DNA of 64,000 nucleotides from Eubacteriales bacterium (GTDB taxonomy: Bacteria; Bacillota; Clostridia; Oscillospirales; CAG-272): the NCBI GenBank assembly GCA_045132775.1, contig JBGUSX010000141.1, positions 543 through 64,542 of the forward strand. The letters are read 5' to 3'. The stretch's first letter is position 1; each line of letters opens with the position of its first letter. Shown here one piece after another: positions 38,212 through 58,116 of this stretch. The translations under genes and the position numbers were made by a program. Under the pieces are notes generated by a model that did not search any database, was not told the DNA's origin, and worked only from the letters and a program-made list of their open reading frames with translations.

Positions 38212-38403
38212 TTACTTATCAAAGCTGGGATTCATTGCATAAAAGTTCTTCGAATCCAACCTGTCCTGCGTGATGCGCAGGGCATCGCCAAACCTCTGAT
38301 AATGGACGATCTCGCGCTCGCGGAGGTATTTGAGCGGCTCGCGAACGTCGGGGTCGTCGATAAGGCGGATAAGGTTGTCGTAGGTCACGCGAGCCTTCTG
38401 CTC
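38212..38403 (-). pseudogene. cotJC: cotJC 3' fragment (last 63 codons plus stop) of a split gene
   Basis: It encodes EQKARVTYDNLIRLIDDPDVREPLKYLREREIVHYQRFGDALRITQDRL.... This is collinear with the C-terminus of CotJC (..AAEEKARATYQWL..LRFLREREIVH.. in B. subtilis, from memory). The upstream frame holds unrelated residues and a stop. Confidence 0.85.
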
Positions 38404-38449
38404 TGTTACTATCACGTATTCGCAATGTTTTGGACCTTTCAAGAACCGC

Positions 38450-38471
38450 GAAAAATCCTTATTTTACAAGG
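38450..38471 (+). repeat. Left copy of a perfect 22-nt sub-terminal direct repeat GAAAAATCCTTATTTTACAAGG (hairpin core)
   Basis: Identical to 57641..57662. It is embedded in the hairpin GCGAAAAATCCTT-attttac-AAGGGGTTTCTCGC. Confidence 0.9.
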
Positions 38472-38638
38472 GGTTTCTCGCTTTTAGGCTCCCTCCGGGA
38501 GGGAGCTGTCGCGTTAGCGACTGAGGGAGAGCGCGTGTGCTTGAAAATCAATTGAATTTCATTGTTCCGCAGGCTCCTTCCGTCAGCCTTCGGCTGCTAC
38601 CTCCCTCTCGGAGGGAGGCTTTGAAAAACGTGTCCTTT

Positions 38639-40198
38639 TCAAAAATTCCAATGTATCTCAATCGGCACATTCCTTGTTCCTTGTATTCGCTTTCCGACCA
38701 TGATTTTGTCGATCAAAATCTCCACCATTTCCCGTGTCAAACGCTCTACCTTGACGTACTTTTCGATCAATTCTCGGCGGTTGTCACCCACGGCAATTTT
38801 GATTTCAATCTCGGCAATTTGCTTTTGACATTCCAGTACCTGCGCTTCAAGGCGTTCTTTTTGTGAGGTAAAGTCCTTCGACAGTTCGATGAAGTCCGCC
38901 TCGCAAATCAGCCCTTTTACCTTGTCAAGATAGAGGTCGCGAACGCCTTTAGAAAACTGATTGATCTTGCCTTGATAGGTCGCAATTTCGGCTTCAATTT
39001 CTTGCTTTTGCGCCAAGATATCGGCGTTAAACTGTATCTTGCGTTCCAACTCGTCCATATCAAGATACTCGGCGTTGAGTCGTCTAAGCTCCGCAATGAC
39101 CATTCTTTCCAGCCTATCCACCGAGATAAACGCACCCTCGCAAGCACCCTTGGCGTAGTGTCGGCTGGGGCATTGCAAAAAGTGTCTGCCGCCCGATTTT
39201 GACGAGCGCATCACGTATCCGCAGGATGCGCACCGTACCTTTTTGGCAAATAGTCCGATCGTACCGACCTTAAACGGCTTTGCTCGCTCGGCGATCATCT
39301 TCTGCACTCTGTCCCACAATGCGCGGTCAATGATAGGTTCGTGTGTGCCTTCCACACGAAACCACTGCTCCTTTTGGCGTGGGCGATTTATACTCGTTTT
39401 ATAGGAAATGCTCTCGTACTTGCCTTGCACCAGATTGCCAATGTAGGTCTCGTTGACCAGCATATCCGAGATTGCAAAGTACTTCCACAGCGTGCTGTTC
39501 TTGCTTGGCGGCAGACTGAAACGAAGCCCCTGCATTCGCTTGTACTCGGTGGGATTTGGGATCCCTCGGTCGTTGAGCATTCGCGCGATTGCCGTCTTGC
39601 CGTAACCTTGTGAAAAGAGGGTGAATACCTCTCGCACCACGGCGGCGGCTTCCTCGTCGATGATCAGATGACCTTTTAGTTCCGGATCCTTCTTGTAGCC
39701 ATAGAGTGCAAACGAACCGATATGAAAGCCGTTTTTGCGGCGGCTGTCAAGTGCGGATTTGATGCTGTCCGACATATCCTCCAGATACCACTCGTTGACA
39801 AGACCGTTGATCTGACGGCTTTTTTTGTTGCCCTTGTTGGCGGTGTCGGCGTTATCCACGATGCTGACAAACCGAATGCCCCAGATGGGAAACAGACCGT
39901 GTATGTACCGCTCCACAAGCTCAAGCTCACGGGTGAAACGGGATTGCGTTTTGCAGAGGATAATGTCAAATTTCTTTGCCTGCGCGTCGGCAAGAAGCCG
40001 CTTAAATTCGGGACGATTTCTGTCCGAGCCCGCATAATCGTCATCACTGTAAATGCCGTAAAGCTCCCAGCCCATTCGATCGGCGTAGTCGCGTAGCATC
40101 GCCTTTTGGTTCTGAATGCTCCCCGAATCGTCGGTGGCGTTCTGCTTATTTTTGTCCTCCTCGGACAGTCTGCAATAGATTGCTACTTTTTCTCTCAT
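38639..40198 (-). CDS. Large serine recombinase (SpoIVCA/SprA-like)
   Basis: N-terminal resolvase domain with VAIYCRLSEED (nucleophile Ser), a recombinase domain, a Cys-rich zinc ribbon (CASCGYVM...LQCPSRHY..GACEG), and a C-terminal coiled coil. Confidence 0.9.
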   Translation of the reverse strand: MREKVAIYCRLSEEDKNKQNATDDSGSIQNQKAMLRDYADRMGWELYGIYSDDDYAGSDRNRPEFKRLLADAQAKKFDIILCKTQSRFTRELELVERYIHGLFPIWGIRFVSIVDNADTANKGNKKSRQINGLVNEWYLEDMSDSIKSALDSRRKNGFHIGSFALYGYKKDPELKGHLIIDEEAAAVVREVFTLFSQGYGKTAIARMLNDRGIPNPTEYKRMQGLRFSLPPSKNSTLWKYFAISDMLVNETYIGNLVQGKYESISYKTSINRPRQKEQWFRVEGTHEPIIDRALWDRVQKMIAERAKPFKVGTIGLFAKKVRCASCGYVMRSSKSGGRHFLQCPSRHYAKGACEGAFISVDRLERMVIAELRRLNAEYLDMDELERKIQFNADILAQKQEIEAEIATYQGKINQFSKGVRDLYLDKVKGLICEADFIELSKDFTSQKERLEAQVLECQKQIAEIEIKIAVGDNRRELIEKYVKVERLTREMVEILIDKIMVGKRIQGTRNVPIEIHWNF

Positions 40199-40271
40199 GT
40201 TCTTATCTCCTCCACGATAAGAACAAGCTGTTTTCCTCCGCCTCTATTATACCACAGACTGCCCTTGTTTG

Positions 40272-40406
40272 TCATTGACTCGGAGAAAAATTTACACTTT
40301 TTCTGCGTTCTAAAGTTGATATGAGCTCGATCCATATATGCGTGTAATCCTCCTTAGTCAGTTCTTTTTTCTTGAAAACACTTATAACGTGTGATTGCTT
40401 TTCCAT
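40272..40406 (-). CDS. Small 44-aa ORF upstream of the recombinase (candidate accessory/directionality factor)
   Basis: The internal ATG of ORF 40272..40496 follows a strong RBS (AAAGGAGACAATC-ATG). Sequence is MEKQSHVISVFKKKELTKEDYTHIWIELISTLERRKSVNFSPSQ. I recognise no homology. Confidence 0.35.
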   Translation of the reverse strand: MEKQSHVISVFKKKELTKEDYTHIWIELISTLERRKSVNFSPSQ

Positions 40407-40583
40407 GATTGTCTCCTTTCGGTTTACTAAATGAGTATGACGGAGAGCCTGTACACTATGCTCACCGTCGGTGTGTACGATTATAGTATAAACCATAAAA
40501 TCCCGTTTGTCATCGGCGAAACTCCGCCAAATTTTTGCCTATTTTGTGCCATTTCATTTTCACCGAAAAAAGCAAAAAAACTA

Positions 40584-40612
40584 TTGACAAACGGAACACG
40601 ATATGATAAAAT
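40584..40612 (+). promoter_or_regulatory. Sigma-A-type promoter (TTGACA-17-TAAAAT)
   Basis: TTGACA at 40584-40589, a 17-nt spacer, and TAAAAT at 40607-40612. It lies 55 nt upstream of the ATPase gene. Confidence 0.55.
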
Positions 40613-40667
40613 AAACTCGTAAGTTAGTAACTCGTGATATAATTATTAACGAAGAAAGGAGTTTTTT

Positions 40668-42062
40668 ATGTTTTACTGTCGTGAAAAAGAGCTTTTTGAA
40701 CTCAATAAACGGTATGATAACGGTAAATTTGAATGTGTCGTTGTTTACGGTCGCCGCCGTGTAGGCAAGACGGCTTTGCTCGGTGAGTTTTGCAAGGATA
40801 AACCGACTATATTTTTTTCAGCACTCAACGCAACCGCACAGGAGAATTTAGAGGCACTTTCAAAGGCGATCTATGAAAAGGATCATCCCGACGCTGCTAC
40901 TGCTCCGATTTACAACAGCTTCGATGATGCCTTTGCGGAAATCACCCGTATGGCACAGGACGAACGAATCGTATTCGTCATTGACGAGTATCCGTATCTT
41001 GCCAAAGCGGATAAATCTATTTCCTCGCGCCTTCAGCACATCATCGACCGAGTATGGCAGGACAGTCAGCTCTACCTGATCCTTTGCGGCTCGTCTATGA
41101 GCTTTATGGAGTATCAGGTGCTTGGTTATGAAAGCCCTCTGTACGGCAGAAGAACGGCTCAGTTTAAGATTCAAGCCTTGACCTACCGTGAGACTACCGT
41201 GTTCAATCAGAGTCTCACAAACGAAGAAAACGCCCTCGTGTACGGCATTACGGGCGGTGTTCCTCACTATATTAACAAGCTGAACGTTGAGAGCGACGTG
41301 GACGAGGCTCTGCTTGATAATCTTTTCAACAACGCAAGCTATCTTTTTGAAGAGCCCGAAAACCTCTTGAAGCAGGAGCTTCGAGAGCCTGCAATTTACA
41401 ATTCCATTATTTCAGCAATTGCGGGCGGTGCTTCCCATGCAAACGAGATCTCTACCAAGGTCGGTATTGAATCTGCCGTATGCGCGAAGTATTTGAAAAT
41501 TCTACTTGACCTCGGCATTCTCAAAAAGGAAACGCCGATTACCGAAAAGGCGGGCAAGAAAACCATCTACAATATCGGAGATAATTTCTTCCGATTCTGG
41601 TATCGTTTTGTGCCGCAGAATACCTCCGCCATCAGTGCGGGACGTATGCCGAAAATCTACGAGCAGTCGGTCAAGAAATATATCCCTGAATATATGGGAT
41701 TGGTATTTGAGCAGATGTGCCGCGACTATCTCCTGCGATATGACGAAAATCTTCCCATTATGTTATCTGAGGTAGGTCAGTGGTGGGGGACGGATCCCAA
41801 AGCACGGAAAGAAGTACAGATCGACATTGTCGGTACACCTGTCGAGGGCGATGAGTATATCATCGGTTCCTGCAAATACAAAAACGAGCAGATCGGCATT
41901 GACGAGTTGGAACTCTTGAAACACTATGCTTCCGTATTTGGCAAAGGATCAAAATACCACTACTATATTTTCTCCAAGAGCGGATATACAAAAGGTCTCG
42001 AAGAAAGAGCCAAGGAAGAAGGAGTTAAGCTTCTTACTCTTGACGACATCTACCGTAAATAA
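40668..42062 (+). CDS. AAA-type ATPase with C-terminal DUF234-like domain (archaeal-ATPase family)
   Basis: Walker A GRRRVGKT and Walker B VFVIDEYPYL. 464 aa, the typical length and architecture of ATPase_2 + DUF234 proteins (from memory). Confidence 0.75.
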   Translation: MFYCREKELFELNKRYDNGKFECVVVYGRRRVGKTALLGEFCKDKPTIFFSALNATAQENLEALSKAIYEKDHPDAATAPIYNSFDDAFAEITRMAQDERIVFVIDEYPYLAKADKSISSRLQHIIDRVWQDSQLYLILCGSSMSFMEYQVLGYESPLYGRRTAQFKIQALTYRETTVFNQSLTNEENALVYGITGGVPHYINKLNVESDVDEALLDNLFNNASYLFEEPENLLKQELREPAIYNSIISAIAGGASHANEISTKVGIESAVCAKYLKILLDLGILKKETPITEKAGKKTIYNIGDNFFRFWYRFVPQNTSAISAGRMPKIYEQSVKKYIPEYMGLVFEQMCRDYLLRYDENLPIMLSEVGQWWGTDPKARKEVQIDIVGTPVEGDEYIIGSCKYKNEQIGIDELELLKHYASVFGKGSKYHYYIFSKSGYTKGLEERAKEEGVKLLTLDDIYRK

Positions 42063-42110: not shown

Positions 42111-42188
42111 ATTTGTGTGTGAGTGTGATAGGTGTCGTAGGCGTAATGAGCAATTTAGAAATTTTGATACAGAAAACACGTATCTTAT

Positions 42189-42394
42189 GAGAATTGAGAA
42201 GACTGCCCGGGGCGGCTTGTGCAACGTGGAAAAAATGCGAAATTACGCGCGGTACGAACCTCTCTCATGCGTAATTTGAAATAGCTATACCGCTGAAAGT
42301 CCTTATTTTGCAAGAATTTTCGTGGGCAAATAAAAGAAAAAACATGGGTACTTTTCAAAGCCGATTTTTGCTCAAAAAATACCCATGTTTTTTG
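42189..42394 (+). ncRNA. Repeated structured non-coding module, copy 1 (candidate sRNA; unnamed family)
   Basis: Box GAGAATTGAGAAGACTGCCCGGGG (42189-42212). Hairpin AAATTACGC/GCGTAATTT (42240-42277) with a CCTCTCTC loop. 3' stem AAAAAACATGGGTA/TACCCATGTTTTTT (42337-42393). Confidence 0.45.
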
Positions 42395-42400
42395 ATTGTT

Positions 42401-43522
42401 TTAGTCGTATTGAACGGGGATGCAATGACGGTGCTTTTGCTTGATTCTGCAATTGATCGAATCAAAATCAAGGGGATGCCACCATGCGCTCTGCATCCAA
42501 TCCGAGATCCATTCGTGTTCGGGATGGTCGGGATCGTTCAGTATTTTCATCTTCTCATCAAACCCATACGCACCGCCGCTGTCCTCCATAGGCGCGTCAC
42601 CAATCGCCTCGGTACAGTGTGGATATGGCGTGGTACAGTTGGGAATAAATCGCTTCAGCTTGATCGTATGTATCCAACCGTCACCGAAATCGTATTCATA
42701 GTCTATCTTCTTTTGTGATTCGAAAATTTCACGAATAGTAACCGTTGTGCTGTCAATGCTTTCGAGTTTTTCGTCAAGCGCAAGCCAATCTTCGTTTTTC
42801 ATAAATCCGGGCTGTATGATTTTCATTGGTCTGCCCATACTGTCCTTTTTCAAAACAAACTGATGCAGATGACAATCGTGCCACTCAAATGCGTCTTGCA
42901 AAATCCTGTGAAGCTGATAGAAATTGAGATCACTCGGAACGACCAGCGTTCTCTTACAGGGAGTAAGGAGATCAAGCGTGACTTCGAGCTCTGCCACGTG
43001 AGCAGACTGCACGGGTGAGCCGTATCTTTCGGTAAGCGTGGCAATCAACTTTTCATAGATAAACGAATAATCTTCTTTTGCGATCATATCGTTGTTGATC
43101 CACGGCAGGTATTTCTCTTGAAACATACTGTCAGGCTCAAACAAATTCACAAAACGCTCCACGCGCTCACACGCTTTATTGCAATACGCAACGTCCGATC
43201 GAGATGCCGTTGTAGCATAGGTTAGATCACTACCGCAATCGTCAAGATATTTTTCTATAATCTCGAAAGCAACATACTCACTTTGCAATACCGCGCGAAT
43301 ACCGTCCTTCATCAGATCGGGCAATCTTGAAATACTCTTTGCCGTCAATCCGTGAAGCACAAAGCAGCACTTGGTTGCATTATTTACGGCAACCAATGTC
43401 TTGCGGCGATTCAGTATGATAAGATTCGCCGTCCAAGAAAACAGTGGATCGGTTTCGGTAGTTAATTTTTGTGGCTTCACCGCCAAAAAATCAAGCAGCT
43501 TTTTTGTACATCCTATAACCAT
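42401..43522 (-). CDS. pRiA4b ORF-3-like (MM3350-like) domain protein
   Basis: ORF trimmed to the ATG at 43522 behind AAGGAGAAAAAT. The C-terminal half has family-typical blocks LNFYQLHRILQDAFEWHDCHLHQF and YEYDFGDGWIHTIKL. Confidence 0.75.
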   Translation of the reverse strand: MVIGCTKKLLDFLAVKPQKLTTETDPLFSWTANLIILNRRKTLVAVNNATKCCFVLHGLTAKSISRLPDLMKDGIRAVLQSEYVAFEIIEKYLDDCGSDLTYATTASRSDVAYCNKACERVERFVNLFEPDSMFQEKYLPWINNDMIAKEDYSFIYEKLIATLTERYGSPVQSAHVAELEVTLDLLTPCKRTLVVPSDLNFYQLHRILQDAFEWHDCHLHQFVLKKDSMGRPMKIIQPGFMKNEDWLALDEKLESIDSTTVTIREIFESQKKIDYEYDFGDGWIHTIKLKRFIPNCTTPYPHCTEAIGDAPMEDSGGAYGFDEKMKILNDPDHPEHEWISDWMQSAWWHPLDFDSINCRIKQKHRHCIPVQYD

Positions 43523-43675
43523 ATTTTTCTCCTTCCTCGCACTCACTTCTATAATATCATTATACCACATTTTTGAAAAATTTCAACAGAAATAGCGGAA
43601 TGAGTATGAGGCATTTTCGTATAAGCAATTTTGCTTAATACTCATTTTGAAATCGCAAAAAGTTGTGTAAAAGGT

Positions 43676-44060: not shown

Positions 44061-44264
44061 GAGAATTGTGAAGACTGCCGGGGTGGAAAGAAAAACGGCA
44101 ATCATTGCGAAATTGCGTTATGATGAAGCATCTCTCTAACGCAATTTAATAAAGCGAAAGCTTGAAAAAGTCAGGTATTATAAGGAATTCTTCAATTTTT
44201 TAATCGCCTAAAAGAAGGGTACTTTTTGAGAGCGTTTTTTGCTCAAAAAATACCCATGTTTTTT
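44061..44264 (+). ncRNA. Repeated structured non-coding module, copy 3
   Basis: Box GAGAATTGTGAAGACTGCCGGGG (44061-44083). Perfect 11-bp hairpin AAATTGCGTTA/TAACGCAATTT (44110-44147). 3' end GCTCAAAAAATACCCATGTTTTTT (to 44264). Confidence 0.45.
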
Positions 44265-44274
44265 AATGCGGATA

Positions 44275-44303
44275 TTGACAAACAATATAACATTTGGTAT
44301 AAT
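44275..44303 (+). promoter_or_regulatory. Perfect consensus sigma-A promoter (TTGACA-17-TATAAT)
   Basis: TTGACA at 44275-44280, a 17-nt spacer, and TATAAT at 44298-44303. A second extended -10 (TGTTATAAT) lies at about 44319-44327. Confidence 0.7.
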
Positions 44304-44330
44304 AAAAATAATAAAACTTGTTATAATCAA

Positions 44331-44455
44331 CGCAAGCTTCATCTGCAAGCTCGCTTGCAAGTGAACCGAGGCAGATTGCTCCGCGAGCGTTGCGTGAAGC
44401 GCAACATGGGCGAAAGCCCGATATCGCAGAGATCGGCTCGCGTGGAGTATACAAA
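44331..44455 (+). promoter_or_regulatory. GC-rich structured 5' leader (multi-stem junction with GAAA tetraloop) upstream of the HTH-DUF3990 gene
   Basis: Closing helix CTCCGCGAGC (44379-88) / GCTCGCGTGGAG (44436-47). It encloses hairpins GTTGCG-tgaag-CGCAAC, GGGC-gaaa-GCCC and CCGAT..ATCGG. It ends 3 nt before the GGAGG RBS. Confidence 0.45.
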
Positions 44456-44468
44456 GCGGAGGCATAAA

Positions 44469-45332
44469 ATGCAAAAGCTAATCAAGAGTATAAGAGAATA
44501 TTTGGGGCTGAGCCAAGCCGACTTCGCCGAGAAGCTGGGAGTGACCTTTGCGACCATCAACCGTTGGGAAAACGGTCGTGCGATCCCCACCAAATTGGCG
44601 CAGGCAACCCTTTACGAATACTGCAAGGCGCAGGGCGTTCCCGTCTATCAGATGATCCTCGATAAGATCAGAAATGCAGCCGAGGAAATCGCACTTGAAG
44701 AAGGACGAAGCCTGCTCTACCACGGCTCAAAGTCGGGTATCGTTGGCGACATCGCTCCCAAGAGCCGCGAGATGTGCGACTTCGGTAAGGGCTTTTATAT
44801 GGGAACTGAGCCCGGACAACCGCTGACTCTGATCTGCGATTTTGAAAAATCCAAGTTCTACATCGTGTCGATCGACATGCGCGAGCTTGATGCCATTGAG
44901 ATCAAAGCCGACCTCGACTGGGCAATGCTCGTTGCCTACCACCGCGGCAGAATGGAACAGATCAGGGGCACAGCATTTTACGAGAAATACAGTCAGCTTG
45001 ATGCAGGCAAGGATCTCGTGATCGGAAGCATCGCAAACGACAGAATGTTCTACGTGCTGGATAACTTCTTTACCGGCGGCATCACCGATATGGCACTTGT
45101 CAATAGCCTTTCCGCGCTGAAGCTCGGAAAGCAGTACGTGGCGACCACCGAAAAGGCGTGTGCATCCGTTCGTGTGGAAAAGGAACTCCCTATCTCCATG
45201 ATGGAGCGCAGATTCCTTCAGGACGAGAGCGAAGCCAACCGACAGAAAGGAATCCACCTTGCAAACGACATTTGCAAGAACTACCGCCGCGAAGGAAAGT
45301 TCTACGACGAGATACTTGACGAGGCGAAATAA
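44469..45332 (+). CDS. XRE-family HTH fused to a DUF3990-like domain (putative ADP-ribosyltransferase-fold)
   Basis: ATG at 44469 behind GGAGG. HTH LGLSQADFAEKLGVTFATINRWENGR. Then LLYHGSKSG...DFGKGFYMG...GSIANDRMF blocks that I associate with DUF3990. ORF-track residues 1-81 are a spurious extension across the leader. Confidence 0.7.
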   Translation: MQKLIKSIREYLGLSQADFAEKLGVTFATINRWENGRAIPTKLAQATLYEYCKAQGVPVYQMILDKIRNAAEEIALEEGRSLLYHGSKSGIVGDIAPKSREMCDFGKGFYMGTEPGQPLTLICDFEKSKFYIVSIDMRELDAIEIKADLDWAMLVAYHRGRMEQIRGTAFYEKYSQLDAGKDLVIGSIANDRMFYVLDNFFTGGITDMALVNSLSALKLGKQYVATTEKACASVRVEKELPISMMERRFLQDESEANRQKGIHLANDICKNYRREGKFYDEILDEAK

Positions 45333-45344
45333 TAGGAGGACACA

Positions 45345-45761
45345 ATGAACGAACTCCAACTGAAAATGTGTGATATACAAGGCAGACTCTTCGAGCTGTC
45401 GGGTGCTGTCGGTTACGATAGCGTGACCTTCATCAAGGCGTTTATGACAGGTGAGGTCGCCAAAGGACTTGACTCCAAGTTCAACCGTATGCAATGGGCT
45501 GGCGAAGAATATCTCCTCGCGGAGATTGCCGATAACGCCGAGCTCACAAAGGGCGGCACCGTGTACGATAAAGAGGTGCTCTATTGGACAGGCTACCTCT
45601 ACCGCTTCTGGCACTTCGCCACAGGCGAGGATAGCAAGGACATCTACCGCCAAGCCCCTGCCGAAACCATGAGCCGCAATTGGCTCATCTTCCATACCCT
45701 CGCCCCCGAAGTGGCAATCGAGGATCTGAAAGAGATTTATAGGCAGAGAAATGGGAATTAA
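45345..45761 (+). CDS. Hypothetical 138-aa protein, operon partner of the DUF3990 gene
   Basis: It starts 12 nt after the upstream stop, behind AGGAGGA. I recognise no confident family. Confidence 0.6.
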   Translation: MNELQLKMCDIQGRLFELSGAVGYDSVTFIKAFMTGEVAKGLDSKFNRMQWAGEEYLLAEIADNAELTKGGTVYDKEVLYWTGYLYRFWHFATGEDSKDIYRQAPAETMSRNWLIFHTLAPEVAIEDLKEIYRQRNGN

Positions 45762-48352: not shown

Positions 48353-51011
48353 TAACTATTTCCCTCAATATACCACCGACTATATCAGCGGTGTTATGTC
48401 CCTGCGTAAGCCGCAGACCGCTTCTTTGAAGATACTTGAAGAAATTGTCAATAGCGTTAGTTTGCGAAAAGGAATGAATTTGAAGGCTGCATTGGGAGCA
48501 GTTCATGCTATGTATCCAATCTGCTCTGACTTTGAACGTGAGTTCATGTCGCTTACCTTTGCCTTGGCAACAGGTGTTGGTAAAACACGTTTGATGGGCG
48601 CTTTTATTGCATACCTCTATACGCAACACAATATTAAGAATTTCTTTGTTGTTGCACCTAATACCACGATTTATGAAAAGCTCAAGCGCGATCTGAGCGA
48701 TTGGAATAGCAGTAAATATGTGTTCAAAGGTCTGGGCTGTTTTAGCACACCTCCGCAGATTATTACGGATGACGATTACCGCACCAAGAATCTTGAAATA
48801 TTTGATTCAGAGGTACATATTTTCGTATTCAATATTGACAAGTTCAATAAAGAAGACGCGAATATGAAAAAGGTAAATGAGCTGCTCGGTGATTCCTTCT
48901 ACCAGTATTTGTCCAATCTGCCCGACTTGGTGTTGATTATGGATGAATCTCACCACTATCGTGCAGAAAAGGGCGCGCAGGCTCTTAACGAGCTTCACCC
49001 TTTGCTCGGATTGGAGTTGACCGCTACTCCTCTTGTTGCGAGTGGATCAAAGCAGATTCCTTTTAAGAATGTTGTATATGAATATCCTCTTTCTCGCGCA
49101 ATTGAGGACGGATATACTCGTACGCCCTTTGCGGTTACACGCTCTGATATTGATTTTTACAATTTTGGTGACGAGCAACTTGACAAAATGATGTTGATTG
49201 ACGGCATCGCTTGTCACGAAAATACAAAGCGTAAACTTGAAATGTATGCGCTAAATAATAGCACTCCCGAAAAGCCTATCCGTATTGTAAAGCCGTTTAT
49301 GCTGGTTGTGTGTAAGGATACAGATCACGCAGCTTGGGTAGAAAGCTTTATCAAGTCGGATGAGTTCCGAGATGGCGCATATAGAAACAAGACAATTACT
49401 GTTCACTCTAAGCAAAAGGGAGCGGAAAGCGAGTTTAATACTCGTTTACTCTTAGATGTTGAAAGTGAGGATAACCCTATTGAGATCGTTATTCACGTTA
49501 ATATGCTCAAAGAAGGTTGGGATGTAAACAATCTCTATACGATAGTACCGTTGAGAACTGCGGCATCCAAAATTCTCCGTGAACAGATGGTAGGTCGTGG
49601 ACTTCGCTTGCCTTACGGCGAACGTACCGGTGACAAAGATGTAGATGCCGTTATGCTTACCGCGCACGATAAATTCAATGACATTTTGGCTGAAGCTCAA
49701 AAAGGCGATTCGATTTTCAAGGCGGGCAACGTTATCAAAGCGGAGGAAATTGTTCCTGAAAAAATTACCTCTACTCAGTTGAAGATCGAATTTGAGCCGG
49801 ACAAGGTGTTAGAAACAGCTTACTCACAGACAAACATTGAGAAAAGCGAAGAAATGGATACGTTGGTAAAGAAGGCAACCGAGATTATTACCACCGAAGT
49901 ATCCAAGCACATTCAGAACACCCCTGCGCACAAGGTGGAGCCCGCGCAGGCAAAAGAAATTGTATCCACAGTTGCTGAACAACTTGGAGAGGATGAGGAT
50001 TTAGGCAACATTTTCAAGGAAAATGAAATGCCTCTTGCCGCTTGGCTGCTTTATCAGACCGAGGAAACCCACAAAGCAGCACAGAAAAAGTTCATTCCCA
50101 TTCCTCGTATTAAAGTTACAGATAGCGGGGTTGAGGAATATGTGTTTGTTGATTTTGATTTGGAGTTGTCCGATTTTACACATGTTCCGATTAAGAACGA
50201 ATTGCTTGTTCAAAATCTTGAGGATATGCAGGACAAGCAACGTATCAAAGGAGAAGCTATAGACTTCGAGGGATATAATCCCAAAAAGGTCATTCTTGAG
50301 CAGTTGCGTCAAAAGCCGGAAATCGATTACGAAAAGTGTTCTGCACTCCTATTCAAGCTTATTACACAGTTGTGCGATCATTACGAGAGCATTCACGGCG
50401 AGAACGGTATGCGAAATATCGTTATGATGTATAAGCGCGATATTGGCAACAAGATCTATAAGCAGATGATGCAAAACTTTTATTGCGAAAACGGCTTCTT
50501 GCAAGCGGAAGTAATCGGAACGCGCGACTATAATTTGCAACAGATTTATAGCTACAAGGAAAAGGTATCTTTGTTTGATAGCTTCACCGAGGATATTCGT
50601 TCCGTGCTGTTTTGCGATATCAAGCGTGGTGTTTTTGAAAATGCCAAGTTCGATAGTTTGCCAGAACTTGTTTTAGCAAGAGTATTGGAAACCGAAACCG
50701 ATGATGTTGAAAATTGGCTTCGTCCTTCTCCCCGTGAGTTTAATATCACGTACAATCACGGTCATACTTATGAACCCGACTTTGTTGTAGAAACCAAAGA
50801 TACAATCTATTTGGTCGAGGTTAAGGGAGAGGACAAGTTGCAAGATCCCGATGTTATTGCTAAAAAGAAGCGCGGTATTCAGTATTGCGAGGTTGCATCG
50901 CGTTGGGGTAAGGCAAACGGATATAAGGAGTGGAAATATCTCTTTATCCCGTCAAAGCAGATTATGCCGAACTCTTCGTTTGTGCAGTTGGCAAAGCGAT
51001 TTCAAGAATGA
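48345..51011 (+). CDS. res: Type III restriction endonuclease, Res subunit (SF2 helicase + PD-(D/E)xK nuclease)
   Basis: Helicase motif I LATGVGKTR and motif II IMDESHH. The C-terminal nuclease block is YEPDFVVETKDTIYLVEVKGEDK. Confidence 0.85.
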   Translation: MNNNYFPQYTTDYISGVMSLRKPQTASLKILEEIVNSVSLRKGMNLKAALGAVHAMYPICSDFEREFMSLTFALATGVGKTRLMGAFIAYLYTQHNIKNFFVVAPNTTIYEKLKRDLSDWNSSKYVFKGLGCFSTPPQIITDDDYRTKNLEIFDSEVHIFVFNIDKFNKEDANMKKVNELLGDSFYQYLSNLPDLVLIMDESHHYRAEKGAQALNELHPLLGLELTATPLVASGSKQIPFKNVVYEYPLSRAIEDGYTRTPFAVTRSDIDFYNFGDEQLDKMMLIDGIACHENTKRKLEMYALNNSTPEKPIRIVKPFMLVVCKDTDHAAWVESFIKSDEFRDGAYRNKTITVHSKQKGAESEFNTRLLLDVESEDNPIEIVIHVNMLKEGWDVNNLYTIVPLRTAASKILREQMVGRGLRLPYGERTGDKDVDAVMLTAHDKFNDILAEAQKGDSIFKAGNVIKAEEIVPEKITSTQLKIEFEPDKVLETAYSQTNIEKSEEMDTLVKKATEIITTEVSKHIQNTPAHKVEPAQAKEIVSTVAEQLGEDEDLGNIFKENEMPLAAWLLYQTEETHKAAQKKFIPIPRIKVTDSGVEEYVFVDFDLELSDFTHVPIKNELLVQNLEDMQDKQRIKGEAIDFEGYNPKKVILEQLRQKPEIDYEKCSALLFKLITQLCDHYESIHGENGMRNIVMMYKRDIGNKIYKQMMQNFYCENGFLQAEVIGTRDYNLQQIYSYKEKVSLFDSFTEDIRSVLFCDIKRGVFENAKFDSLPELVLARVLETETDDVENWLRPSPREFNITYNHGHTYEPDFVVETKDTIYLVEVKGEDKLQDPDVIAKKKRGIQYCEVASRWGKANGYKEWKYLFIPSKQIMPNSSFVQLAKRFQE

Positions 51012-51049: not shown

Positions 51050-52048
51050 GTGAGACAATTGGATGATGTAACCAAATCTGAGTCCAACATGTTAAATGAT
51101 AACGAATGGATGTTCCTTTTGTTTTTGATGTTGGTAGAAGATGCAAAACAAAGAAATGAACAGTGGAAATCCTTTGAGAATGAACTCATTTACAATAATC
51201 GTTTTTCGTCACATCATCCTATTGTTGACGAATTACATAAGAGACGTGAACAAGCTACCACAACTATACAGAAGGATACAATATTTTATAGGGCACGTTG
51301 TTTTGATCAAACAAGTTTTGATAAATTGGTATCATATTATTTAAGAGAAAATGGATACAAGGAAAAACAAATAAAATCGATACTTGAAGAATGGTCTGAT
51401 CAGGAAAAATTATTAACACTAATGCCACAAATATATAGCGATGTAGATTCCTTTGAAAATTCAGCACTGATAAGTGCACAGCGAAAATGGAAACGATATG
51501 TAAAATTCAAAGGGTGGGGAGAAAAGGATTCTTCTGCCCCAAACGCGGATTTGATTGGCAATGGTAGAGCAAATCCAGATCACATACGGTATCTATACCT
51601 TTGTGAAGATAAAACCACACCTGTATATGAAGTTCGCCCAATTATTGGACAGACGGTTAGTGTGGCAAAATTTAAGCTGCAGAGAGACGTTAAAGTTTAT
51701 GATTTGACGTTGGATATTCAAGATGAAATTGGCGAAGAAAAAATGCAAATGCCAAGCCTTTATAATACGATTGGTCAAATGTTTTCAAGGCCTTATAACG
51801 GTGAACCTACAAAATATCTTCCCACACAATATTTAGCTGAAGAAATAAAGAATATGGGGTTTGACGGTTTGCGGTTTAATAGTTCGCTTCATAGTGGTGG
51901 TATTAATGTAGTCCTTTTTGATCCCGAAGCTTGCAAAGCAGTATCGTCTGATTTGGTTGAAATCAAATCAATAAACATTGACATAGATCGACCTTTGATT
52001 TATACCATAGGAGATTCGAGCAAAAATCAAACAGAGGTGAAAAAATAA
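51050..52048 (+). CDS. RES-domain protein with an uncharacterised N-terminal domain of about 160 aa
   Basis: RES signature blocks GNGRANPDHIRYLYLCEDKTTPVYEVRP (R, E) and GFDGLRFNSSLHSGGINVVLFDP (S). The start is uncertain: GTG 51050, TTG 51059 behind GAGGTG, or ATG 51089. Confidence 0.65.
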   Translation: MRQLDDVTKSESNMLNDNEWMFLLFLMLVEDAKQRNEQWKSFENELIYNNRFSSHHPIVDELHKRREQATTTIQKDTIFYRARCFDQTSFDKLVSYYLRENGYKEKQIKSILEEWSDQEKLLTLMPQIYSDVDSFENSALISAQRKWKRYVKFKGWGEKDSSAPNADLIGNGRANPDHIRYLYLCEDKTTPVYEVRPIIGQTVSVAKFKLQRDVKVYDLTLDIQDEIGEEKMQMPSLYNTIGQMFSRPYNGEPTKYLPTQYLAEEIKNMGFDGLRFNSSLHSGGINVVLFDPEACKAVSSDLVEIKSINIDIDRPLIYTIGDSSKNQTEVKK

Positions 52049-52713
52049 TGGATAATAGTGGAGTGATTTATATTCTTACAAACCCGTCCTTTCCCGAGTA
52101 TGTAAAAATCGGATACGCAGATGACATCAACAAGCGCTTAAATCAACTGAATAGAAGCGAATGTATTCCTTTCGCATTCCGCGTATACGCTACATATGAG
52201 GTTAACTCTCGTCTGTCAGATTTAAAAATTCATGCGATTATCGATAAGCTGAATCCAAATTTGCGCTCAATTGACAACTTTAATGGTCAAAAGCGCGTTC
52301 GCGAGTTTTATGCTATGTCGCCCGAGGATGCCTACTCCATTCTTGAGGCAATAGCTGAAATTCACGGTTGCGCGGATAAGCTTACTCTTGTTCAGCCAAG
52401 CGAAGATGAAATTGCTGCCGAGGATACGGCACAAGAAATTGTAGCCGAGAGAACCGAGAGAATGGCTCCGTTCTCATTTACTATGTGTAATATCCCTGTA
52501 GGAGCAACATTGGAATTTTACTTGAATGCACGAGAGGCAACCGGCATCACTTGCACCGTTGCAGACGAAAAGCATGTGAATTATCAGGGACGCATTCTTT
52601 CCCTCTCTGCTCTTGCATGCGAGTTGAGTGGTAAAAGTCCTTTAGCCGGACCGCGCTATTTCAAATATAATGGCGAGTGGCTCAATGATATTCGACATAA
52701 AGCAGGAGTGTAA
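52048..52713 (+). CDS. GIY-YIG-superfamily (T5orf172/MUG113-like) nuclease-domain protein
   Basis: N-terminus GVIYILTNPSFPEYVKIGYADDINKRLNQLN. The start overlaps the RES-gene stop (TAATG). Confidence 0.7.
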   Translation: MDNSGVIYILTNPSFPEYVKIGYADDINKRLNQLNRSECIPFAFRVYATYEVNSRLSDLKIHAIIDKLNPNLRSIDNFNGQKRVREFYAMSPEDAYSILEAIAEIHGCADKLTLVQPSEDEIAAEDTAQEIVAERTERMAPFSFTMCNIPVGATLEFYLNAREATGITCTVADEKHVNYQGRILSLSALACELSGKSPLAGPRYFKYNGEWLNDIRHKAGV

Positions 52714-53663: not shown

Positions 53664-53784
53664 CGGTCACCCTCGGAAATGCATTTATACCAGACTCATT
53701 CTACCAATAAAGCTGAGATTTATAATTTGTTGCAATTTCAAAATGAGTATGGGAAGTGAAACGGTCAAGGTATAAAAAGAAAAA

Positions 53785-53822: not shown

Positions 53823-53836
53823 AAAAAGAGCGTTTA

Positions 53837-55187: not shown

Positions 55188-55300
55188 ATTAATCCTCCAA
55201 GGTTTAGTATGATTAGTTTTTGTCGTTTCCATAGTGGCTATACGCATATTGATGTTCCTTTTATCACACACTAAAAAGAAACGTATCTTGTGGGGGCAAT

Positions 55301-55978
55301 ATGGATATAATCAAGGTTATACTAACTGCGCTTCTTTCGGTGGCGGCGCTGTTTATCATTACGAAAATCATGGGACACAAGCAGGTGGCGCAGCTTGACT
55401 TTTTCGACTACGTTTCGGGTATCACTATCGGCTCTATCGGCGCGGAGCTTGCGACTGAGCTCGAAGAACCCGAAAAGCCGCTGATCGCGCTTTGCGTTTG
55501 GGGCGGCGCGTCGTTGATTCTCAATCTGATCGCCCATAAGCTACCGAAAACGCGCAAATATATCAACGGAACGCCGACTATCTTAATGAACGCCGGCAAG
55601 CTCTACCGAAAGAATTTGAAAAAAGCCAAGCTCGACTTGTCCGAGTTTATGCTCCTTTGCCGAGAGCAGGGATATTTCGACCTTGACGAGATACAAACGG
55701 CGGTCTTTGAGCATAACGGAAAGCTCTCTATCTTGCCCAAGGCAGCCAACCGACCCGCAACACCCGATGATTTGAAAATTACCGCCAAGGCGACGCACAT
55801 CGGAGTGGAGGTCATTATGGACGGGCGCGTGATGGGAGAAAATCTTTCCCGTATCGGTCGCGACACAAATTGGCTGACAAAGCAGTTGAAGGCGCAAGGA
55901 CATAAGGACGCAAAAGAGATATTCCTCGGCGTTTACCGTCCTGAAGAGGACAAGCTGATGCTTTATCCAAACGAGTGA
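55301..55978 (+). CDS. DUF421 (YetF-like) membrane protein
   Basis: 225 aa with N-terminal TM helices and the family-typical block GKLYRKNLKKAKLDLSEFMLLCREQGYFDLDEIQTAVFEHNGKLSILPK. Confidence 0.75.
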   Translation: MDIIKVILTALLSVAALFIITKIMGHKQVAQLDFFDYVSGITIGSIGAELATELEEPEKPLIALCVWGGASLILNLIAHKLPKTRKYINGTPTILMNAGKLYRKNLKKAKLDLSEFMLLCREQGYFDLDEIQTAVFEHNGKLSILPKAANRPATPDDLKITAKATHIGVEVIMDGRVMGENLSRIGRDTNWLTKQLKAQGHKDAKEIFLGVYRPEEDKLMLYPNE

Positions 55979-56023: not shown

Positions 56024-56461
56024 ATGCGAAGACGCAACTGCGGCGAGCATCCCGAGATCCGCGATTACGGATGCGAGCCGTTTATATTCAATATCAATCA
56101 CGCAACGTGTATGAATGAGAATTTCCGAACGACACTTTGGACAGGGCGGGATATGCAGCTGACGCTGATGAGCATTCCTGTGTGCGGAGACATCGGTGTG
56201 GAAATGCACTCTGACGTTGACCAATTTATCCGCGTGGAGAGTGGCAAAGCCAAGGTCTATATGGGCAGTTGCCGAAATGATCTGCGCGAGATGGGTTGTG
56301 TGGACGGTAACTACGCCATCCTCATTCCCGCGGGCACGTGGCACAATATCGTCAACACCGGCAACCGACCATTAAAACTCTATTCGCTTTACGCGCCGCC
56401 TCAGCACCCATTTGGCACGGTACATCGCACGAAGGCGGATGCGGAACACGGTGAGCATTGA
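56024..56461 (+). CDS. Cupin-domain protein
   Basis: 145 aa with beta-barrel motifs ...GVEMHSDVDQFIRVESGKAKV...IPAGTWHNIVN. Confidence 0.7.
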   Translation: MRRRNCGEHPEIRDYGCEPFIFNINHATCMNENFRTTLWTGRDMQLTLMSIPVCGDIGVEMHSDVDQFIRVESGKAKVYMGSCRNDLREMGCVDGNYAILIPAGTWHNIVNTGNRPLKLYSLYAPPQHPFGTVHRTKADAEHGEH

Positions 56462-56660: not shown

Positions 56661-56672
56661 TCTTTCAAAAAG

Positions 56673-56710
56673 CTTCGGCTAATTTATATAACTTCTTAAA
56701 ATTAGCCGAA
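56673..56710. repeat. 38-nt palindromic hairpin element, copy B
   Basis: CTTCGGCTAATTTatataacttcttAAAATTAGCCGAA, near-identical to 53785..53822. Confidence 0.7.
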
Positions 56711-56813
56711 AAATGCTTTTAATTCGTCGTTTTACGTAATTTTATGCCTTCAGTAATATATTCTTCGCTGTTTTGGGAAATACTAACGGTGAATACAATA
56801 ATCGGAGGTATCT

Positions 56814-57476
56814 ATGTTCAAACACGAAAAAATGTTATTCCATCCCGTAGAGGTAGAGAGACCGAATCCTCAGTATGCGGTTCTCTTACAGGAGCAGCTT
56901 GGCGGCGGCAATGGCGAATTGAAGGCGGCAATGCAGTATATGTCGCAGAGCTTTCGCATTAAGGATCCCGAGATTAAGGATCTTTTCCTTGACATAGCCG
57001 CGGAGGAGCTGGGGCATATGGAAATGGTGGCGCAGACAATCAATCTGCTCAACGGTCACGACGTGGACGCCACGAAGGTACAGGCGGGCGAGGTGCAGAC
57101 CCACGTCTTGCTTGGGCTCAATCCCGGACTGATCAATTCCTCGGGTTACTCCTGGACGGCGGATTACGTGACCGTGACGGGCGACCTGTGCGCCGACTTG
57201 CTCTCCAATATCGCGTCCGAGCAGAGAGCCAAGGTTGTTTACGAATATCTCTACCGTCAGATTGAGGATAAGAAGGTACGCGAAACTATAGATTTTCTTC
57301 TCAATCGCGAGGAGGCGCACAATCAGATGTTCCGTGATGCCTTCAACAAGGTGCAGGAAACGGGATCAAACCGTGATTTCGGCACGACCAAGGCGGCGAA
57401 GATGTATTTTTCTATGTCGAACCCAGGACCGAATACGTTTGCGACGGGCGAAACTCACGCACCGTCATTTAAGTAA
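56814..57476 (+). CDS. Manganese-catalase-family protein (ferritin-like; CotJC/YjqC-type)
   Basis: MFKHEKMLFHPVEVERPNPQYAVLLQEQLGGGNGELKAAMQYMSQSF...AAEELGHMEMV...ASEQRAKVVYE...REEAH. RBS GGAGG. Confidence 0.85.
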   Translation: MFKHEKMLFHPVEVERPNPQYAVLLQEQLGGGNGELKAAMQYMSQSFRIKDPEIKDLFLDIAAEELGHMEMVAQTINLLNGHDVDATKVQAGEVQTHVLLGLNPGLINSSGYSWTADYVTVTGDLCADLLSNIASEQRAKVVYEYLYRQIEDKKVRETIDFLLNREEAHNQMFRDAFNKVQETGSNRDFGTTKAAKMYFSMSNPGPNTFATGETHAPSFK

Positions 57477-57483
57477 TTTAAGA

Positions 57484-57516
57484 AAGTCACCGTCATTGTT
57501 TGGCGGTGACTTTTGT
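57484..57516 (+). terminator. Intrinsic terminator
   Basis: AAGTCACCG...CGGTGACTT followed by TTG. Confidence 0.7.
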
Positions 57517-57640
57517 ACTTTGAGAAAACAGCTTGTCGTTATCAATTTTTTAATTAATTAAGCTAAATTTTGTTAAAATTACGTGTTGTTGCTCTTATAT
57601 GATAGCAGGATAGCAATTTTTGAGCGTTTTGCCGAAGTAT

Positions 57641-57662
57641 GAAAAATCCTTATTTTACAAGG
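57641..57662 (+). repeat. Right copy of the perfect 22-nt sub-terminal direct repeat (hairpin core)
   Basis: Identical to 38450..38471. It is embedded in GCCGAA..GAAAAATCCTT-attttac-AAGGCTTTTCGGC followed by GATTTTTTG. Confidence 0.9.
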
Positions 57663-57711
57663 CTTTTCGGCGATTTTTTGCTAAAGGTTGAATTTGCGGG
57701 ATTGCAGCATC

Positions 57712-58116
57712 GGCTGCGAGGTCCTCGTTAAGATCGGCGATCACGTCGCCCTTGACACCGATATACTTCATATCGTTAGGAACACCTGCGGCGGAAACGG
57801 GATAAATGCCGGTCGTATGATCGACGAAATACGGTGCGAGGGGTGACTTGCCGATCTCCTCTGCGTCAACGTTTCGCGTCAGCTGATAGAGGATACTTGC
57901 TACCATTTCCAGATGCGCAAGCTCCTCGGTTCCGACATCGGTTAGGATGCCGACCACCTCATTGTAAGGCATCGAATAACGCTGATTGAGATAGCGCATC
58001 GAAGCCGAGAGCTCTCCGTCGGGGCCGCCAAGCTGACTGACGATGAGCGAGGCGGTCTTGGGATTCGGTGTTTTTATCTTGACGGGGAACTGCAATTTTT
58101 TCTCATAGATCCACAT
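57712..58116 (-). pseudogene. cotJC: cotJC 5' fragment (first 135 codons) of a split gene
   Basis: MWIYEKKLQFPVKIKTPNPKTASLIVSQLGGPDGELSASMRYLNQRY...TEELAHLEMV...GDVIADLNEDLAA matches CotJC up to the AA|E point. The frame then runs 16 unrelated codons to a TAA at 57655. Confidence 0.85.

Follow-up and report, generated by a model that had tools for sequence, protein, structure and literature searches.

Intervening elements that split sporulation genes have been tested in sigK, spsM, spoVFB, spoVR and gerE, where they are excised during sporulation, and in yabG, where the element leaves as a circle in a growth-phase-dependent manner (PMC4191935, PMC5595907, PMC10747680). In Clostridia, skin of Clostridioides difficile couples a sigma-A-driven recombinase, CD1231, to a 72-aa directionality factor, CD1234, driven by sigma-E and SpoIIID (PMC5025042). 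Three further systems are close to the locus described here: gin, the gerE element of Bacillus cereus ATCC 10987; SPbeta, which occupies spsM of Bacillus subtilis and employs SprA and SprB; and the transposons Tn4451 and Tn5397, whose enzymes TnpX and TndX excise helper-free and at any time (PMC4430133). The gene cotJC itself is listed as a target by Abe 2013 (as cited in bioRxiv 10.1101/2021.11.22.469490), and its interruption in Laceyella sacchari is reported by Galperin 2022 (bioRxiv 10.1101/2022.02.25.481979). An initial reading of the present locus from the sequence alone was not aware of cotJC as a well-described target, but the gene was thus already on record. As the cited passages present them, these cases involve the same gene and a skin-like or phage-like splitter; they are one-line genome observations from Bacilli and Thermoactinomycetaceae, whereas the family examined here comes from gut Clostridia.

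The split cotJC gene and its attachment sites

In the 64,000-nt stretch of DNA from a gut Clostridia bacterium that was analysed here (the window), cotJC is interrupted by 19,308 bp, with the break at 57712 and 38403. The operon is arranged as follows:

58587..58970 (-), cotJA, first cotJABC gene, likely ATG at 58958; CotJA-like C-terminal sequence, syntenic with CotJA of L001 and L002
58318..58587 (-), cotJB (Pfam CotJB, 2e-27)
57712..58116 (-), cotJC 5' fragment, codons 1-135, MWIYEKK...DLNEDLAA; alternative ATG at 58131
38212..38403 (-), cotJC 3' fragment, codons 136-198 and stop, EQKARVTYDN...NPSFDK

After DLNEDLAA, the 5' frame continues through 16 unrelated codons to a stop; the insertion point lies between Ala135 and Glu136, and the positions proposed for the split proved exact to the base. 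The conceptual join, 198 aa long, matches Pfam Mn_catalase (5.7e-53) and aligns with ten intact homologues (82-97% identity) without gap or duplication, no residue being missing or repeated; DLNEDLAAEQKAR, which spans the join point, is invariant among the ten, and the stretch encoded by attB is the most invariant part of the protein in this alignment. An intact cotJABC contig, L001, covers window positions 59695..57710 and 38405..38207 in two segments that meet with a 4-nt overlap, and the insertion is therefore clean. Relatives with an uninterrupted junction, which the sequence-only reading had proposed to seek, were found only in other species. Its description of the operon stands for cotJA and cotJB, which overlap in TAATG at 58589-58585 (the cotJA TAA shares letters with the cotJB ATG), but not for direct coupling of cotJC, which is separated from cotJB by about 200 nt.

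The two junctions have only one contiguous identity in common, the dinucleotide GA of the coding strand, which bears out the proposal that a 2-bp crossover would restore cotJC in frame. The sites comprise:

57710..57711, attL crossover dinucleotide, coding-strand GA (+ strand TC)
38402..38403, attR crossover dinucleotide, coding-strand GA (+ strand TC)
57686..57709, P' arm, tgctgcaatcccgcaaattcaacc on the coding strand
38404..38427, P arm, cattgcgaatacgtgatagtaaca on the coding strand
57636..57668, left terminal hairpin, terminator-like, repeat D3 (predicted fold -11.3 kcal/mol, z = -2.4)
38445..38477, right terminal hairpin after the recombinase gene, terminator-like, repeat D3 (predicted, -13.1 kcal/mol, z = -2.85)
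57524..57610 (+), relic of a second recombination module: recombinase 5'-leader box gaaaacagcttgtcgttatc and sister-clade P arm gttgttgctcttatatgatagcagGA

The P and P' arms are inverted repeats, symmetrical at 17/30 positions. Conserved copies of the P' arm occur at attL in both L009 and L021, and within a P-GA-P' joint in the tandem locus L013; the P arm recurs as gttgcgaatacgtgatagtaaca beside GA in most loci (about 15) of the clade of 91-98% identity and also in L083. The two D3 hairpins are direct repeats, conserved in related loci. Between the leader box and the P arm of the relic module, there is no recombinase gene.

The recombination module

38639..40198 (-), large serine recombinase (LSR), 519 aa (Pfam Resolvase, Recombinase, Zn_ribbon_recom, DUF4368)
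40199..40256 (-), LSR promoter and leader, with extended -10 TGTGGTATAAT (40246-40256) and AACAGCTTGTTCT box
40272..40406 (-), 44-aa small ORF, candidate recombination directionality factor or regulator, MEKQSHVISVFKKKELTKEDYTHIWIELISTLERRKSVNFSPSQ
40435..40461 (-), sigma-E-like promoter motif, GCATAgt-N15-CATACtca, upstream of the small ORF

The LSR gene, recognized at the left junction from the outset, is a full-length ORF at one edge of the element, with 236 bp separating its stop codon from the junction. The protein has the catalytic residues, serine 12 of YCRLS (YxRLS) aligning with TnpX YERLS; the closest solved structure is that of TnpX, and the identity to TndX is 31% over the full length. 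Judging by these features, the LSR is intact and TnpX/TndX-like, these two being the named proteins closest to it in structure and sequence and sharing with it the GA crossover dinucleotide and clostridial hosts. TnpX and TndX, however, act partner-free on mobilisable or conjugative transposons, whereas here a partner ORF is universal, no transfer genes were found in the element, and a single gene is targeted, at one fixed codon.

A homologue of the small ORF (~45 aa; about 44-55 aa) precedes the LSR gene in 77/77 loci with enough sequence, and a free phage, L113, carries one as well. Searches of Pfam, NCBIfam and PHROGs gave no match for the small protein and revealed no homology to any known directionality factor. 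Sigma-E-like matches number 3 in the window against 0.83 expected, one of them being that upstream of the small ORF, and kmATA-N16-18-CATAy occurs at the same place in 56/79 related loci (expectation 0.03 per 400 nt), with the ATA and CATA blocks conserved and the spacer variable. The consensus match makes this a candidate sigma-E promoter, although the sharing could partly reflect common descent. The LSR has its own predicted sigma-A-type extended -10, followed by a predicted 9-bp hairpin (40199-40224; -14.1 kcal/mol, z = -3.75) around the ribosome-binding site.

By analogy, the small ORF, the sigma-E-like motif and the sigma-A-type LSR promoter appear to mirror the logic of C. difficile skin, which strengthens the case for excision. 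As in that sigK element, the LSR gene lies at the edge, beside the 3' gene fragment, behind a (here predicted) sigma-A-type promoter; a sigma-E-type promoter, here putative, serves the gene of a distinct small protein (72 aa in skin and about 44-55 aa in this family); no functional phage is present; and precise excision restores, or in our case would restore, a mother-cell gene. The small protein, however, is unrelated in sequence to CD1234, is basic (pI 9.2 versus 5.5) and, unlike in skin, is encoded immediately upstream of the recombinase. The skin target is a sigma factor, whereas cotJC encodes a coat protein, so that excision here would not gate the developmental programme.

Gene content and relatives of the element

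56814..57476 (+), MnCat2, manganese catalase, CotJC paralogue, core (Pfam Mn_catalase, 1.4e-56)
56024..56461 (+), cupin-domain protein (domain match)
55301..55978 (+), YetF/DUF421-family membrane protein, also in L020
53889..55271 (-), FAD-dependent oxidoreductase with C-terminal Rieske domain, core, 84-94% identical in 13 loci
52048..52713 (+), T5orf172 / PDC-S57 defence-candidate protein (1.3e-98)
51050..52048 (+), RES-domain protein (domain match)
48345..51011 (+), Type III restriction enzyme, Res subunit (REase_III, 3.3e-142)
46751..48352 (+), Type III restriction-modification methyltransferase, Mod subunit (MTase_III, 6.3e-178)
44226..45761 (+), HTH-DUF3990 protein and 138-aa partner, PDC-M13/M42-like defence-candidate pair
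42401..43570 (-), DUF6933 and PRiA4_ORF3 protein, PDC-S63-like
40668..42062 (+), ATPase_2/DUF234 ATPase, PDC-S27 defence candidate (1.8e-55)

A 5.7-kb core common to the close clade includes MnCat2, which is 36% identical to the rejoined CotJC and 95-100% identical in 9 other loci. The cargo slot is occupied by the genes for YetF and the cupin protein and by a defence block of 13 kb, made up of the Type III restriction-modification system and the defence candidates. Neither phage (structural) genes nor genes for mobilisation or conjugation were detected in the 19.3-kb element. The original characterization of the cargo as defence genes, not a prophage, thus fits the defence block but omits MnCat2, the FAD/Rieske oxidoreductase, YetF and the cupin protein. 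Like gin, this is a non-prophage island with G+C below that of its host, carrying a restriction-modification system and placed in a small mother-cell gene by serine recombination; gin differs in its target, its Bacilli hosts, as opposed to Clostridia, and its three serine recombinase genes plus recJ, compared to one recombinase and a relic module here.

Among related recombinase loci, in other Clostridia, 71/76 lie next to a cotJC fragment that breaks off at the same codon; of these, 55 are oriented as in the window and 16 are inverted. In about 50/55 loci, including clades with recombinases diverged to 72-77%, the cotJC 3' fragments are open and conserved to the C-terminal NPSFDK, the hosts differing by up to 40%; such intactness could merely mean recent insertion. 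Loci with only 70-81% identity in their host cotJC fragments are 82-90% identical in element DNA, and these sequences indicate that the element spreads horizontally. The 107-kb contig of phage L113 contains the same module (small ORF and LSR) and an intact attP (P-GA-P') between nucleotide-metabolism genes and lysis genes. As with SPbeta, where active phage and defective islands have an integrase and directionality-factor unit in common, a free phage and the cotJC islands share the recombinase, the candidate directionality factor and attP, and the target is a spore-envelope gene; unlike SPbeta, the window element lacks phage genes, its recombinase is only distantly related, and its sporulation promoter is proposed from a sequence match. 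Some genomes contain a second recombinase element further along cotJC. Two independent recombinase families have converged on this mother-cell gene, as for sigK and other sporulation genes.

Proposed mother-cell excision and the alternatives

With moderate confidence, we interpret the 19.3-kb element as a skin-like, cotJC-intervening integrative island, placed by the LSR in a fixed attB and excised in the mother cell; by analogy with the tested systems, such excision probably occurs. The proposed module runs from the sigma-E-like promoter through the ~44-aa protein, the sigma-A-type extended -10 and the recombinase to the P arm. In vegetative cells and the forespore, the island would stay integrated and be inherited. 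In the mother cell, the sigma-E-driven small protein, possibly together with read-through into the recombinase gene, would switch the LSR to attL x attR recombination; the island would exit as a circle, leaving an in-frame cotJC available for coat assembly. Since the mother cell leaves no descendants, the island would persist in the germ line without cost to the spore. Searches of genome, metagenome and viral collections yielded no attP joint or rejoined attB from the window's clade, and neither an excised circle nor an empty site in the same species turned up.

Ordinary coding genes are often hit by serine integrases, and the element might instead be a plain site-specific mobile island of the Tn4451/Tn5397 kind, for which the conserved AAEQKAR-coding stretch, the most invariant in CotJC, is only a widespread, reliable landing site. 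Excision would then be sporadic and serve transfer, and cotJC would be inactivated, a loss tolerated if CotJC is dispensable or redundant, possibly with the element's own Mn catalase. This account, which we deem unlikely although a real possibility, draws on the resemblance of the LSR to enzymes able to excise helper-free, and it agrees with the horizontal movement of the element. The C. difficile cotCB and cotD (cotJC-like) mutants lose catalase activity but have no major coat defect (PMC11222575), which, together with the closely conserved MnCat2 in the core, suggests that hosts might tolerate a permanently split cotJC. Against it stand the universal small ORF and conserved mother-cell-type promoter motif, which a helper-independent transposase would not need, the lack of detected transfer genes, the intact cotJC fragments even in distant clades, and the convergence of two recombinase families.

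Decay does occur in the family, as indicated by the relic module inside the left end, by L016, where neither the left end nor the 5' fragment of cotJC is present, and by L009, where no cotJC 3' fragment follows the recombinase. That the window element itself is a fixed relic, with excision ability gone and cotJC a pseudogene in the lineage, is nevertheless improbable given the full-length LSR ORF with its catalytic motif, att arms that both match the clade consensus, two open cotJC fragments with a summed 97% identity to an intact homologue, and intact cotJA and cotJB. Mis-joining of cotJC halves from different molecules, a concern of the sequence-only reading to which the missing entry for the recombinase protein in the gene-position collection might lend weight, is hardly credible, since >70 independent assemblies, isolate genomes and a complete chromosome among them, show the same attL/attR architecture, the flank on the cotJA side (mraZ, rsmH, PBP) shares its synteny with L002, collinearity with L001 extends through cotJABC, and the junctions fall on one exact dinucleotide.

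The element in the window belongs to a large family of islands in gut Clostridia that has hardly been described. New here are the family-wide targeting of cotJC, the attP of a free phage, the linked small ORF with its sigma-E-like motif, the Mn-catalase core and the second cotJC element.

The split cotJC gene and its junctions

On the minus strand of the window, the frame that starts at position 58116 encodes 135 CotJC-like residues up to DLNEDLAA, followed by 16 unrelated codons and a stop, and the frame that resumes at position 38403 encodes EQKARVTYDN…NPSFDK followed by a stop. The conceptual join of these fragments, described in the sequence-only reading as a 198-aa protein collinear with CotJC, was borne out by the match to the Mn_catalase/CotJC family (5.7e-53), with thousands of intact homologues detected. 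Alignment of the join with ten intact homologues contained no gap and no duplication at the junction, and the residues spanning it (DLNEDLAAEQKAR) are invariant; excision in silico gives an intact, conserved and gapless cotJC frame, with 97% identity to the best intact homologue. A metagenome contig with an intact cotJABC operon (L001) aligns to window positions 59695..57710 and 38405..38207, with an overlap of 4 nt; relative to this contig, the window therefore contains a clean 19.3-kb insertion. The shared dinucleotide was likewise confirmed: the two junctions have no contiguous identity other than GA on the coding strand (TC at 57710-57711 and 38402-38403 on the plus strand), a sole shared core without a longer duplication, in agreement with the 2-bp crossover of large serine recombinases.

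The split gene, cotJC, sits in the cotJABC operon, and the claim of tight coupling in this operon stands for cotJA (58587-58970) and cotJB, which overlap at TAATG, but not for cotJB and cotJC, which are separated by about 200 nt. A sigma-E-type -10 element (CATAGAAT) without a convincing -35 is located upstream of cotJA; in B. subtilis, cotJ is expressed in the mother cell, under sigma-E. In another contig (L002), gerA directly follows cotJC, which raised the possibility of a second island at 3.4-38.2 kb of the window. This candidate was rejected: the region contains ordinary chromosomal genes (Trk, Opp, bile-salt-hydrolase-family, sugar metabolism, S8 protease-LRR), and the difference from L002 reads as rearranged interspecies synteny. 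It includes a 2400-aa ORF (19330-26532, plus strand) with S8 subtilase, PA and Fn3-like domains and seven blocks of BspA-type leucine-rich repeats, a giant surface protease with no relation to the cotJC element.

A recombinase family at cotJC

Features of the element that splits cotJC in the window
38639-40198, minus strand: large serine recombinase with Resolvase (PF00239), Recombinase (PF07508), Zn-ribbon (PF13408) and DUF4368 domains (Pfam)
53889-55271: FAD oxidoreductase with a Rieske domain, a core gene of the element
56814-57476: Mn-catalase paralogue, sharing 36% identity with CotJC; 95-100% identity among loci
13-kb block of lower G+C: Type III restriction-modification system, Mod (MTase, 6e-178) and Res (REase, 3e-142)
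Same 13-kb block: PDC-S27, PDC-S63, PDC-M13/M42 and PDC-S57 candidates and a RES-domain protein

The recombinase gene lies at the element's edge, as originally noted; it is 236 bp from the right junction (attR), and the catalytic serine is present: the alignment of its N-terminal VAIYCRLSEED with TnpX TALYERLSRDD (structure 2mhc) identifies Ser12, in YCRLS, as the nucleophile. The protein is 31% identical to annotated TndX over the full length; no family-level name is available for it in NCBIfam, where the CcrB and XisF matches fall far below the cut-offs. An extended -10 (TGTGGTATAAT) of its own precedes the gene, and the leader contains a conserved hairpin. Directly after the -10 (40199-40245, minus strand) there is a AACAGCTTGTTCT box, conserved at equivalent positions in related loci L003-L082, and the subsequent hairpin encloses or pairs with the ribosome-binding site, with stems that vary among clades while the pairing is retained. 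Translational or operator control of the recombinase by this leader is possible.

A scan of one genome from each of 185,579 species confirmed at least 562 related recombinase stretches. The best 80 of these, 72-98% identical, were retained; they come from gut and rumen Clostridia, both MAGs and isolates, the latter including Anaerotignum lactatifermentans, Roseburia faecis (complete chromosome), Blautia difficilis, Lacrimispora indolis, Clostridium fessum and Diplocloster modestus, among others. Cultured carrier strains include R. faecis JCM 17581, A. lactatifermentans DSM 14214, B. difficilis M29, C. fessum SNUG30386 and L. indolis SR3. Among the 76 of the best 80 loci with enough flanking sequence, the recombinase gene is directly followed in 55 by the cotJC 3' fragment, which begins precisely with EQKAR, and in 16 the 5' fragment ending at residue 135 is found there instead, in inverted orientation. 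In about 50 of the 55 loci, the 3' fragments retain an open frame and are conserved as far as the C-terminal motif. Element DNA is 82-90% identical between loci, whereas the cotJC fragments of the same loci are 70-81% identical, indicating horizontal spread.

Junction alignments show that the attachment arms next to GA (P and P') are clade-specific. In the inverted class, the arm adjoining the recombinase gene is the mirror image, and the two orientations are therefore explained if the attP core is flipped with respect to the gene module. The attP reconstructed from the window (…cattgcgaatacgtgatagtaaca-GA-tgctgcaatcccgcaaattcaacc…) is symmetric at 17 of 30 positions, and a P-GA-P' joint is present between tandem elements in locus L013. 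A hairpin repeat with a CCTTGTAAAATAAGGATTTTTC core occurs in three copies (38445-38477, 42289-42321 and 57636-57668), two of which lie 46-48 nt inside each element end in direct orientation, with conservation in related loci; these end-located hairpins look like terminators that would insulate the att sites. Inside the left end (57524-57610, plus strand), there is a relic of a second recombination module, with a recombinase leader box and a sister-clade P arm followed by GA and no recombinase gene in between, which suggests past tandem accretion or module replacement.

In two family loci, L052 (7579-11631) and L057 (7638-11537), a ~3.7-kb element that encodes a different serine recombinase (502 and 511 aa; N-terminus MSLYDAVYARQS…) splits cotJC once more, after …QRFGEA (about residue 176); the same insertion is probably present in L013 and L072. 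Genomes of the L052/L057 type thus have cotJC in three pieces, which makes this position a second attB hot spot. In a MAG locus (L016, 328-4265), TrkA, TrkH and bile-salt-hydrolase-family genes, which in the window follow the cotJC 3' fragment, adjoin the Mn-catalase end of the element, and the left att arm and the cotJC 5' fragment are absent; this copy has therefore been rearranged or has decayed, or else the locus is mis-assembled.

Element anatomy and cargo

The closest relatives, the clade with 91-98% recombinase identity, share a core that consists of the Mn-catalase paralogue, the FAD/Rieske oxidoreductase, a small ORF and the recombinase; the element in locus L021 is only 5.7 kb in total. 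The window copy additionally carries YetF, cupin genes and the 13-kb block (G+C 0.38-0.45 vs 0.49), a cluster of known and candidate anti-phage genes that, as judged by homology, forms a defence island. The cargo had been described as defence genes rather than a prophage: the former holds for the 13-kb block, but is incomplete given the Mn catalase and FAD/Rieske genes of the core and the YetF and cupin genes of this copy, and no phage structural, packaging or lysis genes were found in the window element with Pfam and PHROGs. Distant family members carry wholly different cargo (among it MatE, metallo-beta-lactamase-fold, Schlafen, GmrSD-like and RNase III genes and a two-component system accompanied by an FtsX/MacB permease); the recombination module alone is common to them and the window element; in skin elements, likewise, only the recombination module is shared (Galperin et al., bioRxiv 10.1101/2022.02.25.481979).

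Upstream of the Mn-catalase paralogue (56740-56800, plus strand) there is a conserved caATATAtt-N15-GGAAATAATA motif. We take it to resemble a forespore (sigma-F/G-type) promoter; a genuine promoter there would place expression of this cargo gene where the element stays unexcised. Cargo modules are flanked by several families of intergenic repeats (42339-42396, 43899-43956, 44210-44267; 42182-42211, 43660-43689, 44054-44083, 53387-53416; 53780-53825, 56668-56713) that comprise palindromic terminator-like units and a GAAGACTGCCCGGGG motif and may be seams of cargo exchange.

Predicted control of excision and alternative readings

An ORF of ~44-55 aa with the motif C-x-SVFK…(F/Y)T..WIELI..LE is located just upstream of the recombinase gene in all 77 loci that offer enough sequence. 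In the window, GCATAgt-N15-CATACtca (40435-40461) precedes the start of this ORF by about 30 nt. The corresponding pattern, kmATA-N16-18-CATAy, occurs three times in the window (0.83 expected), and in 56 of 79 loci it lies 262 to 292 nt upstream of the recombinase start, against an expectation of 0.03 per 400 nt; across the loci, the ATA and CATA blocks are kept and the spacer is variable. The mother-cell sigma-E consensus is kmATATT-N13-15-CATACAmT, which the small-ORF motif apparently matches. A sigma-K promoter was rejected because the conserved AC, ~11 nt from CATA, is too near for a sigma-K -35. In the C. difficile skin element, sigma-A-driven expression of the recombinase CD1231 is ubiquitous, and a small directionality factor that depends on sigma-E and SpoIIID, CD1234, limits excision to the mother cell (PMC5025042). 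By analogy, the small ORF with its sigma-E-like motif and the separately promoted recombinase would represent the arrangement demonstrated for that element.

The same pair of genes, with a 73%-identical recombinase, is encoded by a 107-kb free phage contig (L113; IMG/VR UViG_3300045988_153380), flanked to one side by NrdD/NrdG-like and dUTPase genes and to the other by those for ToxN, holin and tail lysozyme. The recombinase stop in this contig is immediately followed (4567-4614) by an intact attP, gttgttcttataagattgcagca-GA-tggtacgaccgtataagaacaac, symmetric at 20 of 26 positions, an independent confirmation of the att-site model. L113 further identifies the recombination module as a phage integration unit; SPbeta and its defective relatives likewise share a phage integration unit, as L113 and the islands do. 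Upstream of the small ORF, L113 has …TATAT at the motif, and integrated relatives have …CATAT.

Searches of public contigs yielded no same-lineage circle joint or empty or rejoined site. The exact 30-mer of the rejoined junction had no matches in genome_contigs; relatives differ at synonymous sites, which makes this result uninformative, and the comparison was made at protein level and with L001 and L002 in its place. The close-clade circle joint had no matches in metagenome and viral contigs, and the sister-clade joint pattern had none in viral contigs; a search with the P arm only retrieved one further attR (L083) and no attP. A 23.9-kb circular 'plasmid 18' of Subdoligranulum variabile (OY725852.1), with a recombinase 67% identical to that of the window, was rejected as an excised circle because its recombinase is followed by the cotJC 3' fragment, which corresponds to attR; the record is probably a chromosomal piece misfiled as a plasmid.

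The main rival explanation is a TnpX/TndX-like site-specific transposon that merely uses the invariant AAEQKAR-coding DNA. The window element has GA at the crossover, as do TnpX/TndX transposons, and TndX, with its GA core, needs no helper (PMC4430133); furthermore, mutants in cotJC-like genes of C. difficile lose catalase activity without a major coat defect (PMC11222575), and the element supplies a spare Mn catalase. We nevertheless consider this explanation unlikely because the partner ORF with its mother-cell-type motif is universal, which counts against the recombinase alone being sufficient, transfer genes were not found (no relaxase, Mob or conjugation domains among the window element ORFs), and cotJC is also the convergent target of a second recombinase family, unrelated to the first. 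That the window copy is a decayed relic is highly improbable, and that it is an assembly chimera is scarcely credible.

In bacteria, intervening elements in sporulation genes are the textbook example of programmed DNA rearrangement within a terminal cell. Those described interrupt sigK, spsM, spoVFB, spoVR, gerE and yabG (PMC4191935, PMC5595907, PMC10747680), and this handful comprises the tested targets. The suggestion that cotJC is not a well-described target has to be corrected, at least in part: cotJC is named among the interrupted genes of Abe et al. 2013, according to the passages of bioRxiv 10.1101/2021.11.22.469490 that cite that work, and Galperin et al. list its interruption in Laceyella sacchari (bioRxiv 10.1101/2022.02.25.481979). 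No experimental or systematic account of cotJC interruption was found in the searchable literature. Several features appear to be unreported: how broadly the family occurs in gut Clostridia, its two orientations, the universal small partner and the sigma-E-like motif that goes with it, the attP-bearing free phage, the core Mn-catalase paralogue and the doubly split cotJC.

We tentatively favor developmental excision. A wider joint reading is slightly less likely than not. In it, cotJC would be a major docking site for mobile DNA in gut Clostridia, where a phage-derived two-gene unit (a sigma-E-controlled directionality factor of ~45 aa and a TndX-like integrase), present in hundreds of species, would insert in either orientation via an attP-core flip, carry interchangeable cargo (defence islands, efflux/resistance-type modules, two-component systems, a spare Mn catalase) and be excised in the mother cell alone; certain genomes would have the gene split again by an unrelated integrase element and rebuilt from three pieces, comparable to the multiply interrupted heterocyst genes of Anabaena.

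The principle is unsurprising to a specialist; the locus gives access to a family common in gut and rumen Clostridia, and culturable isolates among its members and a simple predicted control module put the excision model within direct experimental reach. A new orthogonal recombination tool could be made of the integrase, its small partner and the defined attP/attB with a GA core. The family also bears on the persistence of defence islands, suggesting how these and other cargo may reside in spore-formers at little cost.
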